Virus record (IMG/VR): IMGVR_UViG_2802429064_000003
Origin: a virus
Reading direction: 5' to 3' (one strand)
Length of the DNA: 64,000 nt
Made by a program: the position numbers and the translations under genes. The notes under the pieces were generated by a model. That model did not search any database. It saw only the letters and a list, made by a program, of their open reading frames with translations, and was not told where the DNA came from. Positions 34,062 through 45,885 of this stretch are shown here, piece after piece (position 1 is the first letter of the stretch; each line of letters starts with the position of its first letter).

Positions 34062-34078
34062 TTCTCTAAAACAGAAAA
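34062..34078. promoter_or_regulatory. Operator/promoter palindrome, variant TTCTCTAAAACAGAAAA
   Basis: Located 22 nt upstream of the ATG at 34100. Confidence 0.55.
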
Positions 34079-34099
34079 TAACAGCAAGTGGGAGTGCGG

Positions 34100-35104
34100 A
34101 TGACATCGACCTTGTGCCTGGAATCGAGGCCAACTGGGCTGGTTCCGAGCGAAGATGTGAGGGCAGAGCCCTCGTCAGATGCGCGCGAAGACGCGCGCTC
34201 GGCGAAGTTCAGCCGAGATGCCGTCCGGTACCTCCTGGAGTACATCGCTGCGAATGGTCACGCGCATATCCCGCGTGACTATGTGTGCGCAGATGGCTTC
34301 CAACTCGGTGCACGGTCCAACAACTGGCGGCGGCGAAAGATCAGTCCGGAGTTCATAGCGAGGCTTGACCGCGTGAAGCTCTGGCGGTGGACTGCCGAAG
34401 AAGCGCGATGGGACGCCCGCTTTGCGCTACTAACGGAATACATACAGGAACACGGTGACGCACGTCCGCCCGCCAGATGGCGCTCGGTTGATGGATTCCG
34501 TCTCGGCGGCTGGGTTGCCCGTCAGCGCGCCTTGTATCGTGAAGGTCATCTCGATCCGGATCGCACGGCTCGGTTAGAGGAGTGCCCCGGTTGGGTCTGG
34601 GAGCACCCGACGAACTTGCGATGGGCCGAGGCTTACAAACTGCTCTGCCGATACGTGGACGAGCATGGGACTGCAGCTGTTCCCTTGTCATACACCCACT
34701 CCGAGGGATACAGGCTCGGGGATTGGGCCGCCGCCCAGCGGTACTACTTCAAGACCGGAAGTATGAGCAAGGAACGAGCCCAGCTGCTCGAATCGCAGCC
34801 AGGGTGGTCTTGGACACGAGAATCAGCACGCTCAGATGAGCAGTGGGAGTGTGGATTCAATCATCTGCTCTGGCTTGTCGGACAGACAGGCTTCGCTGAT
34901 GTCCCCGCTGGGTATCGCACTCCAGATGGATTCCGGCTGGGACCATGGGCGTACTCGCAAAGGTCCCAGCAGCGCGACGGAACGCTAGATCCAGAAAGAG
35001 CTGCACGCCTCAACGCGATACCCGGATGGACCTGGCACATCGAGCCGAGCCGCAAAATTGCTCCACCGTATTCCACGCTGGTGTCCGCAGGAGCTTCGTC
35101 GTGA
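34100..35104 (+). CDS. Helicase-associated (HA) domain repeat protein (4-5 HA repeats, no helicase core)
   Basis: Repeated W..W...F..L..Y...HGH..VP......GF.LG.W...QR......L...R...L...PGW.W units. GGGAGTG RBS. Confidence 0.6.
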   Translation: MTSTLCLESRPTGLVPSEDVRAEPSSDAREDARSAKFSRDAVRYLLEYIAANGHAHIPRDYVCADGFQLGARSNNWRRRKISPEFIARLDRVKLWRWTAEEARWDARFALLTEYIQEHGDARPPARWRSVDGFRLGGWVARQRALYREGHLDPDRTARLEECPGWVWEHPTNLRWAEAYKLLCRYVDEHGTAAVPLSYTHSEGYRLGDWAAAQRYYFKTGSMSKERAQLLESQPGWSWTRESARSDEQWECGFNHLLWLVGQTGFADVPAGYRTPDGFRLGPWAYSQRSQQRDGTLDPERAARLNAIPGWTWHIEPSRKIAPPYSTLVSAGASS

Positions 35105-42655: not shown

Positions 42656-42717
42656 CGACACGAGCGTCGACGTCATCGCAGCTGCCGGCTGCCAGAGGTG
42701 GTGGGAAGAACGGCCCG

Positions 42718-45700
42718 ATGAGCGACATGACTGAGCTACTCATAGCCGACTCTATGACTGAACCAGTTCCTGGTCCCCGACGGCATCAACGAGGTCCGCG
42801 CTCACATCAAACTGAGGCGCTGAACAGCCTCGCCGCTGTATTAGATTCGGTTCCTCGCGCCCAGCTGGTCATGTCCTGCGGAACCGGCAAGACCCTTGTC
42901 GGTCGCTGGCACGCCGAACGAATCGGCGCAGCGGTGACTGCCGTCGTGGTGCCATCACTGAGCCTGATCGCGCAAACTCTGGCCGAATGGCGATCGGTGC
43001 CAGGCTGGCCGTTCGAGGCCTTGATCACCTGCTCGGACCGCACCACCGCGGACGGTGAATACGAACGGGCAGCTGGGGATGGGCAGGACGTCAGTGCCTC
43101 ATACTGGGCATCACTGCGGGCCCGCGTCACCACCGAGAGTGCCATTGTCGCCAATCGCTTGCGCGATCACAGCCCCTCCCGGCCTTTGGTCGTGTTCTCG
43201 ACGTACCACTCGGTGCACGTGGTTGCCGACGCCGCTAGGCGCGCCGGTGTCGTCATGGATCTGGTTGTCGCCGACGAGGCACACACACTGGCTGGCCGGC
43301 CCCGGCCTGAATTCCGGATCGTGCTGGAGGAAAAGCTCCCCGCTCGCACTCGAGTGTTCATGACGGCAACTCAGGTACTCGCCGAAACAGAACCCCACAG
43401 TGAGTATTTCGAGGATTGGTCAGCTCCGCTGTCGATGTCCGACGAGAAGCTCTTCGGGCCGGTGGCCTACCGCCTCGATTTCTCTGCTGCAATCGCACGA
43501 GACCTGTTGTCCGACTATCGGGTTCTGGTCTATGAAACCTCGGGCGAAAATCTCACACCGGATCCCGTCTCCGCGTTGATCGCAGGAGCGCGTGAAGGTA
43601 TCGGCAAGGTGCTGAGTTTTCACGGTCGCGTCGGCAAGGCGCGGGCATTTGCCGCTGCGATCGACGGCATCACCTTGCCAGACGGACGCACCGTCGTCGC
43701 ACGGTCTGTTGCCGGCAAAGACCCCACCCGCCAACGGATGCAGGCACTGGAGCTGCTTAGAAGTGCCAGGCCCGAGCAGATGGTCGTGGTGTGCAGCGCG
43801 AGGTGTCTGGCCGCGGGTGTCGACATTCCGGCAGTCGACGGTGTGCTGTTCGCCGATCCAAAGAATTCGGACGTCGACGTGATTCAGGCTGTCGGCCGTG
43901 CACTGCGCAAGTCGCCGGGAAAGAGCCACGGAGTCATCATGATTCCGGTCTGCATCCCTCGGGATCTCGACGAGGACACCGCGCTGTCTACCGGTGCGTT
44001 TTCCGCGGTGTGGCGCGTGCTGCGTGGCCTGCGGGCAATGGACGACCGGCTCGCCAGAGAGCTGGATGAGGTTCTCCGAGCGCCGTCACGTCGAGGTATC
44101 AGGGATGGATCACGGCTGCTCTCCCATATCGAATTCAACGTCCCGTCGATCACCGACGTGAGCCTGCTGAACAACAAGATCGTCGATTTCGTCTCTCCAG
44201 CGTGGGATCTGTTCTACACCGAGCTCGAGCAGTTCGTCGCCGAGCACGGGCACGCCCGACCTGAGCGAAACACCAAGCTGGGCAGGTGGTGTGAACGCCA
44301 GCGCATGATGTACCGCACGGGCATGCTGATCGACGATCGAAGGGCCCGGCTGCGTGCCCTTCCCGGCTGGACCTGGGACGTGGCTGAACAGCGATGGATC
44401 GAGCAGTGGGCACAGGTCGCCGATCTGTTCAGGCGCCATGGGGAATCACTGCTCACCGATCCGGAACTAGCGGTGATACCCATTGACGCCGGGGTGTTAT
44501 CGCGCAAGTGCCGTGCCTCGACAGTGGGCCGATGGTGTGCGTGGAACCGCCAGCTTGCGCGCCGCGGTGACTTGAGCGACTGGCAGGCCGACAAACTCAA
44601 TGAGGTCGACAGTTGGGCCTGGGCGCTGATCACCGAAACCGACGCTGCTGCTGTCGACCTTCTCGGTGAATACGTCGCCTGGAAAGGTCACGCCAACCCG
44701 CCGCCTGACGTGGTGGAGGACGACATCGAGCTGGGCCGCTGGCTCAACGAAATCCGTCGTCAGCGGGTCACCGGCCGGTTGAGTCAGCCGCTGCTCGATG
44801 AGATCGAGATGGTCACTCCCGCTGATTCTGCTGGTGGTGCTCTGCGCTGGTATCGAGTTGAGATGCAATGGCTTCTGGGAATTGAGGCCTTGCGCCAATT
44901 CCGCGCTCGCGAAGGCCATCTCCGAATACCAGAAAAGCACACGGAGGCGCTGCCCGACACCACGATTCCCCTCTACGACTGGTGCACACGGCAACGGTAC
45001 TTCTACCGGCATGGCCAGATGCCGCCTGCTCGGGCCCAGGCGCTTGAGCGTGTCGACGGATGGTTGTGGGAACGTCAGCCTGCGCCTCGCGTCCTCATGG
45101 ATATCGGTGATGCCAGGCACGGTACCCGTACCGGATACGTGAAGGGTTGCAAGTGCGAAGAGTGCACCGAAGCGAATCGGACGAAGGCGCGTGAGCGCAT
45201 CGCTCGTTCCGTCGCTGGCAGGCCGACCACCGATTGGGTCAGCGCAACTCGCGCCAGGATGCACCTGGCGGCTCTCGATGCTCAAGGTGCACAACAGAAG
45301 TCACTGGCGCGAGCCAGTGAACTGAATGTCAAGACCATCGTGGGCGTGCTCAGTGGTACGACGAAACGGATTCTTCCTGAAACCGAGACGGCCATCTTGG
45401 CATTGACCTTCGGCGCCGTGCAGGCCGCTGTCGCTCCTGGGACATCGATCGATGGCGGTCCCACTTGGGTGCTTCTCGACGACCTCATTGCCCGAGGGTG
45501 GCCGAAGGCGTGGATCGCCCGAGAGATCGGCAAAGGCACAGAGAAATCTCTCCAGCTGCGCCGAGATTCGGTGACTGCCGGCCATGCCAAGGCCGTCGCT
45601 CGACTCTACGAGCGTCTCGGTGAGCGGAAACCACAGTCATGGCGACGTTGCAAACAACTACCCACCCTCGACGAGATTCTGGCCGAGTCCCCGAACGAGC

Positions 45701-45885
45701 CGGCACATCCGGCATTGGCTGTGGCTCCGGGGTCAGGTACTTCCGAAAGTTCTGGAAATCAGAATCGTTGGGCTAAGCAGCTATTGGATCAGGGCTACTC
45801 GATTCAGCACATTGCAAAGCGCTGTGCAATGACGGAAGCCCAGGTCAAGTCGCTGACCGCCACCGATCGGAGGATGCCAGCATGA
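42718..45885 (+). CDS. Second DEAH-type SF2 helicase with an HA domain and a long C-terminal extension
   Basis: Walker A SCGTGKTL, motif II VVADEAHTLAG, a helicase C-terminal domain, the HA domain FVAEHGHARPERNTKLGRWCERQRMMYRTGMLIDDRRARLRALPGWTWD, and a Cys cluster GCKCEECTEANRTKA. Confidence 0.7.
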   Translation: MSDMTELLIADSMTEPVPGPRRHQRGPRSHQTEALNSLAAVLDSVPRAQLVMSCGTGKTLVGRWHAERIGAAVTAVVVPSLSLIAQTLAEWRSVPGWPFEALITCSDRTTADGEYERAAGDGQDVSASYWASLRARVTTESAIVANRLRDHSPSRPLVVFSTYHSVHVVADAARRAGVVMDLVVADEAHTLAGRPRPEFRIVLEEKLPARTRVFMTATQVLAETEPHSEYFEDWSAPLSMSDEKLFGPVAYRLDFSAAIARDLLSDYRVLVYETSGENLTPDPVSALIAGAREGIGKVLSFHGRVGKARAFAAAIDGITLPDGRTVVARSVAGKDPTRQRMQALELLRSARPEQMVVVCSARCLAAGVDIPAVDGVLFADPKNSDVDVIQAVGRALRKSPGKSHGVIMIPVCIPRDLDEDTALSTGAFSAVWRVLRGLRAMDDRLARELDEVLRAPSRRGIRDGSRLLSHIEFNVPSITDVSLLNNKIVDFVSPAWDLFYTELEQFVAEHGHARPERNTKLGRWCERQRMMYRTGMLIDDRRARLRALPGWTWDVAEQRWIEQWAQVADLFRRHGESLLTDPELAVIPIDAGVLSRKCRASTVGRWCAWNRQLARRGDLSDWQADKLNEVDSWAWALITETDAAAVDLLGEYVAWKGHANPPPDVVEDDIELGRWLNEIRRQRVTGRLSQPLLDEIEMVTPADSAGGALRWYRVEMQWLLGIEALRQFRAREGHLRIPEKHTEALPDTTIPLYDWCTRQRYFYRHGQMPPARAQALERVDGWLWERQPAPRVLMDIGDARHGTRTGYVKGCKCEECTEANRTKARERIARSVAGRPTTDWVSATRARMHLAALDAQGAQQKSLARASELNVKTIVGVLSGTTKRILPETETAILALTFGAVQAAVAPGTSIDGGPTWVLLDDLIARGWPKAWIAREIGKGTEKSLQLRRDSVTAGHAKAVARLYERLGERKPQSWRRCKQLPTLDEILAESPNEPAHPALAVAPGSGTSESSGNQNRWAKQLLDQGYSIQHIAKRCAMTEAQVKSLTATDRRMPA

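Follow-up and report, generated by a model that had tools for sequence, protein, structure and literature searches.

The IMG/VR virus record IMGVR_UViG_2802429064_000003 comprises 64,000 nucleotides (this whole stretch is called the window below), in which positions 34,062 to 45,885 carry a block of six genes. They encode a protein composed of helicase-associated (HA) domains, two superfamily 2 (SF2) DEAH helicases with HA units, an exonuclease resembling oligoribonuclease (Orn), a fusion ATPase and an SPFH/Band-7 membrane protein. A preliminary description of the DNA regarded the block as a co-regulated module and likened it to anti-phage defence systems or to phage anti-defence and superinfection-exclusion modules. 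The comparisons reported here place the window in an element integrated in the chromosome of Mycobacteroides abscessus, in which one palindromic operator motif recurs at the promoters of several operons, including that of an eccB-eccC pair. With about even confidence, we regard the block as a stretch of a repressor-controlled regulon of this integrative element of at least 90 kb, which is probably conjugative.

Gene organization of the block

The six genes and both plus-strand operons were found where the preliminary description had located them (Table 1). Gene calls were based on Pfam matches, on inspection of start codons and ribosome-binding sites, and on the gene calls in near-identical public contigs (contigs and related elements are designated by L numbers). 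The HA-only protein starts at ATG 34100 with the ribosome-binding site GGGAG and is likewise called as a 334-aa protein in the relatives L005–L010, and the ATPase starts at ATG 41382 with AGGAGG; helicase 2 has three candidate starts, at 42652, 42718 and 42754. Overlaps of 4 nt (GTGA and ATGA) join the HA, helicase 1 and exonuclease genes, and the SPFH and helicase 2 genes also overlap if the start at 42652 is used. The block thus reads as two plus-strand operons, predicted to be translationally coupled, that flank a divergent ATPase operon.

Table 1. Features of the block and their positions in the window
Feature	Position	Strand	Remarks
Operator palindrome TTCTCTAAAACAGAAAA	34062..34078	+	Promoter of the HA/helicase 1/exonuclease operon, 22 nt upstream of the ATG
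HA-only protein, 334 aa, four HA (PF03457) units	34100..35104	+	Pfam HA 2.2e-59, 4 stretches
SF2 DEAH helicase 1, 1034 aa, eight C-terminal HA units	35101..38205	+	Pfam ResIII, DEAD, Helicase_C, HA x8
192-bp tandem DNA repeats encoding HA units of helicase 1	36757..38170	+	Copy number varies among isolates
Orn-like DEDDh 3'-5' exonuclease, 226 aa	38202..38882	+	Oligoribonuclease is the best PDB and NCBIfam match
Small conserved gene, 50 aa	38875-39027	-	Downstream of the ATPase, same strand
Small conserved gene, 65 aa	39030-39227	-	Downstream of the ATPase, same strand
Soluble fusion ATPase, 666 aa	39382..41382	-	Pfam FtsK_SpoIIIE, AAA and AAA_lid_6
58-aa open reading frame (ORF) between ATPase start and SPFH promoter	41468..41644	+	Called in L001 and L003; GTG at 41468
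SPFH operon promoter, TTGACT-16 nt-TACGAT	41641..41668	+	Palindrome 41646-41662 occupies the spacer
SPFH/Band-7 membrane protein, 311 aa	41720..42655	+	Pfam Band_7 1.9e-20; phrog_200 1.6e-51
SF2 DEAH helicase 2, four HA units, C-terminal Cys-motif and helix-turn-helix (HTH) region	42652..45885	+	Pfam ResIII, Helicase_C, HA x4

An operator palindrome recurs at element promoters

The 17-nt palindrome TTCTCTAAAACAGAGAA occurs six times in the window with up to three mismatches, against 0.02 copies expected, at positions 4430, 12918, 34062, 41646, 47847 and 52174. The copies at 34062 and 41646 head the two plus-strand operons of the block and confirm the shared palindrome that had been noticed there. 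The copy at 41646 fills the 16-nt spacer of a sigma-70-like TTGACT...TACGAT promoter, and the other copies share this promoter-spacer geometry; their orientation relative to the downstream gene varies, as is consistent with an operator that a symmetric regulator recognises. The core TCTCTAAAAYAGAGA of the palindrome (15–17 nt) is also present in M. abscessus before eccB-eccC, beside an XRE gene (L025:8081), and at 13 sites in a related element of Tsukamurella described below. The Tsukamurella sites include one before the exonuclease/HA/helicase operon and one between eccB and an HTH regulator gene.

The position of the operator is conserved among relatives. In all of the M. abscessus-group and M. 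conceptionense variants examined (L001, L003, L005, L009, L027 and L028), it precedes the SPFH gene by approximately 72 nt. The copy before the HA gene is found in L003 and L005–L010, where the HA gene is present, and is missing in L001 and L027, where the HA gene is missing too. Because operators are embedded in the promoters of both plus-strand operons, co-regulation of these operons is plausible. The proposal of a co-regulated module therefore stands as far as a shared predicted operator is concerned, but not as a property specific to the two operons, given the four further copies in the window and the copy at eccB-eccC. The palindrome appears to be an element-wide operator, predicted at no fewer than eight promoters including that of eccB-eccC, and is not confined to the block.

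The window as part of an integrated element

Judging from its sequence context, the window belongs to an element integrated in the M. abscessus chromosome, for which one contig implies a length of at least 90 kb, and the claim that the genes belong to a mobile element is supported. Many M. abscessus assemblies encode exact copies of window proteins, in some cases on contigs of 0.5–0.7 Mb, and a protein index locates marker genes of the element in approximately 90–150 blocks of a public collection. The right end is a tyrosine integrase gene (60949–62157, Phage_integrase) with chromosomal genes beyond it, and an HTH_17 gene lies near the integrase. On the left, the element extends beyond the window start, with Macro, phosphoribosyltransferase-like, RyR, NAMPT and Nudix genes and then LppX, GmrSD_C, eccC (1426 aa), eccB (576 aa) and a divergent XRE-type HTH gene. 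The eccB-eccC operon lies in L025:8050–14281, approximately 12 kb left of the window start. It is divergent from the XRE gene, which encodes 100 aa, and the operator palindrome lies between them.

The window itself also holds genes for Pol I, another SF2 helicase, two WhiA-like proteins, a DnaQ-like exonuclease, RNase H, an SLT transglycosylase and a secreted S1 protease. As possible conjugation machinery, the element yielded only EccB-EccC, several FtsK-like ATPases, the SLT transglycosylase and the S1 protease, together with a weak plasmid_TraB match (1e-5). Searches of the large window ORFs against PHROGs or Pfam revealed no virion genes besides weak, partial terminase-family matches (phrog_15/phrog_19299 on a 256-aa ORF and phrog_2666 on the FtsK domain of the ATPase), and Pfam marked none in the 24-kb left flank. 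Neither the 50,697 phage records nor the PLSDB plasmids contained a megablast match to the 12-kb block. A tRNA scan and an Rfam search of the window also found nothing.

A relative outside M. abscessus is in NZ_LR134455.1, which is labelled Tsukamurella tyrosinosolvens 'plasmid 13, circular'. Its first 120 kb consist of chromosomal housekeeping genes, and the record carries cobalamin, lnt, rbpA and uvrA genes; we therefore rejected the plasmid label and treat the record as a chromosome contig with an integrated element. This element starts at a tyrosine integrase and runs for at least 143 kb to the contig end. According to tblastn of the window proteins, it is syntenic with positions 2.6–47 kb of the window at 30–72% amino-acid identity. 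Common genes are those for WhiA, the other helicase, Pol I, a 456-aa and a 745-aa protein, the SLT transglycosylase, the S1 protease, the HA proteins, the exonuclease, an HA helicase and the SPFH protein and, further on, LppX and eccC/eccB; the ATPase counterpart has the architecture FtsK-FtsK-AAA. This long synteny shows the block to be embedded in a conserved backbone rather than to form a separate island. The 143 kb of annotation contain no virion genes. A 'DUF87 protein' that might have signalled a VirB4-like type IV secretion system proved to be the third piece of a split EccC and was rejected. The Tsukamurella element also encodes RNA ligases, cysS, Thg1 and DNA methyltransferases.

The genes of the block vary independently in three slots

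The M. abscessus-group relatives keep the backbone and differ in three slots. In the window type and in L003, slot A holds the HA protein, helicase 1 and the exonuclease; in L001 and L002 it holds the exonuclease alone, and in L027 an H2TH_5 protein with a 109-aa gene. Slot B carries the fusion ATPase in most variants and an unrelated 407-aa protein in L027. Slot C is occupied by helicase 2 in the window type and by an MTS/Eco57I-like methyltransferase with a 237–239-aa gene in L001, L002, L003 and L027. Consequently, L001 and L002 are without the HA protein and both helicases, and L027 keeps the SPFH gene alone of the six. All of these elements retain the SPFH gene, the sole constant member of the six, as well as the two small genes downstream of slot B. 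The small genes are called in L001, L005–L010 and L027, with L003 added by tblastn; they are 66–85% identical across relatives and persist in L027, where the ATPase is replaced.

Beyond the element family, the individual parts are found by themselves on other plasmids. With slots that vary independently in relatives and parts found singly elsewhere, the co-occurrence of the six genes was not borne out. Neither did PADLOC-DB 2.0 give a system-level match for them: the individual matches correspond to shared domains (the helicase part of REase_MTase models, PbeA, the FtsK part of SspH/mad8, and DEDDh), and the HA and SPFH proteins had no PADLOC match at all. The idea that helicase, nuclease, ATPase and membrane scaffold form one defence or anti-defence system is not supported, given these generic matches, the element-wide operator, the independent slots and the occurrence of the parts alone elsewhere; from their sequences and distribution, the six genes do not appear to be one system. 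What survives of the resemblance is that an anti-defence or establishment role of individual genes is compatible with their location in accessory slots.

HA protein and HA helicases

Both helicases retain intact motifs I (GTGKT), II (DEAH), III (TAT) and VI (QxxGRxxR). According to Pfam, tandem HA (PF03457) units number eight in helicase 1 and four in helicase 2. A standalone HA protein and an eight-unit array had been recognized correctly in the preliminary description, which counted a single domain in helicase 2 where there are four units. The two helicases are divergent paralogues, 28% identical to each other. Helicase 1 is 47% identical to its Tsukamurella homologue and approximately 28% identical over approximately 95% of its length to Streptomyces plasmid proteins annotated 'helicase associated domain'. 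Its length among relatives (1034, 970 or 777 aa) tracks the HA repeat number. One assembly carries helicase 1 split into 605 and 346 aa, and the GC content falls to 0.565 at 36–38 kb, over the repeat stretch. The C-terminal part of helicase 2 matches phrog_1590 and has weak HTH matches; PDB and Pfam searches with the C-terminus gave nothing usable.

HA helicases are present in 783 plasmid records, in varied contexts, and yielded four weak matches among phage records, none from actinophages. HA domains had been taken to be largely confined to actinobacteria. This is refuted by the 115 Pseudomonas plasmid records that carry HA helicases and by the solved HA structure, which is attributed in PMC12191111 to Bacteroides; the same paper cites the HA domain as one thought to bind DNA (Mills 2013). 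Both helicase cores strongly match the helicase part of the PADLOC model REase_MTase_IIG (3.7e-93 and 1.5e-73), and the HA helicase of pMchErm55 adjoins Eco57I-type methylase, GIY-YIG, TIR and HIT genes.

The closest functional parallel by domain architecture is TtrA of Streptomyces linear replicons, a protein with tandem HA domains described as a conjugation helicase (bioRxiv 10.1101/2024.11.13.623437). Like both helicases here, TtrA has an SF2 DEAH core followed by tandem HA units and is carried by transmissible actinomycete replicons; the likeness is one of architecture, the identity of approximately 28% given above being to the Streptomyces plasmid HA-domain proteins. TtrA is subtelomeric on a linear replicon, whereas the present helicases lie in an integrated element, 16–27 kb from its integrase end. 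Unlike TtrA, they form a pair of paralogues, and they are accompanied by an HA-only protein encoded separately and by an Orn-like exonuclease whose gene is translationally coupled.

Fusion ATPase

The ATPase consists of a conserved N-terminal motif, an FtsK domain like domain 1 of EccC (residues ~71–330) and an AAA+ module with AAA_lid_6 like that of EccA/CbbX (~380–660). It had been described as an FtsK/CbbX fusion. The fusion is real, but the generic labels are not apt, for the halves are nearest to EccC domain 1 and EccA of type VII secretion (T7SS). The N-terminal half matches EccC domain 1 (PDB 4nh0, 2e-35; NCBIfam TIGR03924, EccCa, 7e-38) and its FtsK domain shares 31% identity with domain 1 of the EccC that the element itself encodes; the C-terminal half matches EccA1 (PDB 9lur, 4.4e-39) and TIGR03922 (3.5e-51). 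Both NCBIfam scores fall far under the cutoffs: 131 bits vs 509 for TIGR03924, and 174 bits vs 467 for TIGR03922, of which model positions 276–557 alone align.

The FtsK-type EccC and the CbbX-type EccA are each represented by a module, but, unlike in the T7SS, the two are fused in one soluble protein, which lacks the transmembrane, DUF, D2 and D3 parts of EccC and the TPR domain of EccA. We found no hydrophobic segment, TPR domain, or D2 or D3 domain in its sequence. The Walker motifs also differ from those of the T7SS proteins, being degenerate in the window clade: the FtsK domain has Walker A GSGRS (Lys-to-Arg) and Walker B IEE, and the AAA Walker B reads LLENAH and so lacks the catalytic Glu. 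This Glu is missing in nearly all of the family (LLENAH, LLDSAN and FIDSAC), with the exception of the Tsukamurella type (IDEAY). The N-terminal motif SARLKKSAREYMAAHPGVKYQQAL (residues 1–30) is the best-conserved stretch of the ATPase across genera and served as the search pattern in a genome scan. It had no Pfam match, and PDB and Pfam searches with the N-terminus gave nothing usable.

Homologues of the ATPase come almost exclusively from M. abscessus, and the FtsK+AAA architecture recurs in a few other Mycobacteriales contigs. An all-against-all search was dominated by multi-AAA proteins, with few matches of FtsK+AAA architecture. A genome scan with a five-sequence alignment retrieved two Mycolicibacterium loci and no others. 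In these two genomes, the homologue sits in a different integrase-bearing element, and none of the window's other proteins is encoded within 10 kb of it. A scan of viral contigs found no relative.

Exonuclease and SPFH protein

The exonuclease matches PDB oligoribonuclease/REXO2 (1.5e-11), mainly over residues 87–207, and NCBIfam oligoribonuclease PRK05359 (1.4e-18) with 67 bits, below the curated equivalog cutoff of 106. It shares the DEDDh fold of Orn/REXO2 and all of the catalytic motifs (DIE, SLDGPF and HRTVED). Unlike that of Orn, its gene shares an operon with a helicase gene on a mobile element, a setting in which its substrate may be DNA ends rather than dinucleotides. It is also found in 17 plasmid records, without the helicase.

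The SPFH protein matches Pfam Band_7 with 74 bits against a gathering score of 23.6 and has two N-terminal hydrophobic segments (4–22 and 55–73). It is 72% identical in Tsukamurella. Relatives are carried by 367 actinophage records, where they are annotated as band-7-like membrane proteins, and by mycobacterial chromosomes. These relatives have the same arrangement of an N-terminal membrane anchor followed by the SPFH domain and are approximately 50–55% identical to the protein described here. Unlike them, it belongs to a clade of its own (at least 72% identical) that is tied to the element family, and its gene always stands behind the element's operator. As a precedent for a scaffold role, PMC5718613 describes a flotillin scaffold that supports T7SS assembly in S. 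aureus.

Other features of the element

The window begins with an NAD+ salvage cluster (1–2285), comprising NAMPT (10–1635) and Nudix (1632–2285) genes, and in L011, L012 and L026 it is preceded, outside the window, by the Macro, phosphoribosyltransferase-like and RyR-domain genes. The cluster resembles phage NAD+ reconstitution pathways that counter NAD-depleting defences. The WhiA-like paralogues (12957–13910 and 15810–16841, minus strand) have all three WhiA Pfam domains and adjoin the element's other SF2 helicase; a WhiA gene is in the same place in the Tsukamurella element. A 22-bp unit, TCAGGTGTAGTGGAAACGGGCC, is present in 2.5 tandem copies at 21553–21605, between an E3_binding-domain gene and a 166-aa gene, and could be an iteron or a regulatory site.

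A cluster at 27820–33370 encodes the soluble 456-aa and 745-aa proteins, the SLT transglycosylase, which has an N-terminal hydrophobic segment, and then the secreted Rv1815-like S1 serine protease, which has a GDSGAP motif. This cluster is conserved in every variant and in Tsukamurella. For the 456-aa and 745-aa proteins, no homology was detectable outside the element family, and PDB and Pfam searches gave nothing usable. In L013 (GCA_900134295.1), the same integrase is followed by approximately 5 kb of element genes (RNase_T-type exonucleases) and then by chromosomal genes; this locus represents a remnant that has decayed or, alternatively, a much smaller element with the same integrase and site.

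Discussion

The anatomy of the block, the distribution of the operator, the synteny and the variability of the slots were observed directly. From these observations we infer the identity of the repressor, its behaviour on induction and every biochemical or biological role proposed here. In the reading that we favour, a repressor encoded by the element would bind the palindrome core in the promoter spacers; the small XRE-type HTH protein encoded divergently from eccB is the best candidate. Upon induction, or upon entry of the element into a repressor-free cell, repression would be lifted and the operator promoters would fire together. The SPFH protein would then provide a constant membrane scaffold, and the soluble EccC-D1/EccA-like ATPase may assist the EccB-EccC machinery of the element as an accessory factor. 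Accessory DNA binding, unwinding and trimming would be contributed, in a TtrA-like manner, by the HA protein, the two HA helicases and the Orn-like exonuclease, which would thereby assist transfer, replication or establishment of the element DNA.

Several points weigh against this reading. That the element is conjugative is no more than probable: EccB and EccC alone were seen, with no EccD, MycP or Esx genes, and the sequence covered, which stops short of the left end, gave no relaxase, VirB4/VirD4 set, TcpC or TraB-type translocase. For each of the HA protein, helicase 1, the exonuclease, the ATPase and helicase 2, there are relatives that do without it, so that these five genes cannot be core transfer functions. 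Given its altered Walker motifs, the ATPase of the window clade may hydrolyse ATP poorly. Finally, counter-defence cargo would account just as well for the slot variability, the GC dip and the exchange of helicase 2 for a methyltransferase.

The main rival of the favoured reading holds that the variable-slot genes (HA/helicase 1/exonuclease, the ATPase, and helicase 2 or the methyltransferase) are counter-defence or establishment cargo. Such cargo would be expressed immediately upon entry into a repressor-free cell, in the manner of the leading-region genes of conjugative plasmids, and would protect incoming DNA from restriction or, through the Orn-like exonuclease, remove nucleotide immune signals. 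The presence or absence of these genes independently of one another within a fixed backbone argues for it, as do the exchange of helicase 2 for an MTS/Eco57I-like methyltransferase, the match of both helicase cores to a helicase-methyltransferase model and the company of the pMchErm55 helicase. The element has other likely counter-defence genes (NAMPT, Nudix and Macro), and the operator design would be expected to give zygotic induction. However, homology between the slot genes and characterised anti-defence proteins was not found, the substrates of Orn-type enzymes are very short linear RNAs and not the known cyclic signals, and the helicase/exonuclease cluster is 47% identical between genera, above much arms-race cargo. 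On balance, we consider the cargo explanation unlikely.

Two further explanations are less likely than cargo, and we rate both as very improbable. One retains all six genes as an anti-phage defence or superinfection-exclusion system, with a helicase sensor, a nuclease, an ATPase and a membrane scaffold. Its composition does bear a superficial likeness to that of defence systems, defence genes are frequent on mobile elements, the surroundings of some HA helicases are defence-island-like and SPFH relatives are common in actinophages; against this stand the PADLOC results, the separate travel of the genes (L001/L002, L027 and the Mycolicibacterium ATPase loci) and an operator shared with the eccB-eccC operon, which we read as the element's transfer machinery. 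Moreover, the sole nuclease is the Orn-like exonuclease, and no toxic effector was recognised among the genes. The other takes the element for a large prophage and the block for part of its early replication/recombination cassette. A Pol I approximately 38% identical to actinophage Pol I, the band-7-like genes of actinophages, the many small ORFs of no assigned function, and the phage-like combination of operator-in-promoter control with an integrase at one end would all suit a prophage. Such an element should not lack capsid, portal and tail genes in the scanned window ORFs, the 24-kb left flank and the 143-kb Tsukamurella element alike; the terminase-family matches are weak and partial, the phage records gave no megablast match, HA helicases are nearly absent from sequenced phages, and an EccB-EccC pair is present.

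Compared with the large T7SS-bearing mobile elements known in mycobacteria (PMC4173767, PMC7478629 and PMC12803027), the integrative element proposed here has familiar and unfamiliar traits. pRAW, ICEMyc226 and the giant linear plasmids with tRNA arrays likewise carry ESX-type genes, helicases, Pol I/RNase H and FtsK-like ATPases. Unlike in them, the part of the element covered here showed no relaxase, VirB4, VirD4 or TcpC and no complete ESX locus; a tyrosine recombinase serves for integration, there is no DNA similarity to PLSDB plasmids, and our searches found no earlier description of the conserved operator regulon. Although the components are of recognisable kinds, we did not find this integrated element family, its predicted cross-genus operator regulon, the EccC-D1/EccA fusion or the helicase/HA/Orn-like operon described in the literature. 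A bolder idea, to which we give little credence, is that the regulon constitutes a relaxase-independent, T7SS-derived DNA transfer apparatus peculiar to Mycobacteriales. The EccB-EccC motor, the EccC-D1/EccA-like ATPase, the SPFH scaffold, wall hydrolases, TtrA-like helicases and a DNA-preparing exonuclease would be its parts. If true, the entire 90–140 kb family would represent a new class of integrative conjugative element that is spreading among clinical M. abscessus.

The linkage test has a bearing on genome annotation as well, since adjacent helicase, nuclease and ATPase genes on mobile elements call for such a test before they are named a defence system. The catalogue of mobile elements is still only partial for M. 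abscessus, a drug-resistant pathogen. The HA-domain helicases and the EccC/EccA fusion ATPase gain a concrete, testable context from the present assignment. A single conserved operator, which ties together eccB-eccC, the SPFH scaffold and the TtrA-like helicases, would, through one repressor and a single motif, make the induction and transfer of this giant element directly accessible to experiment.

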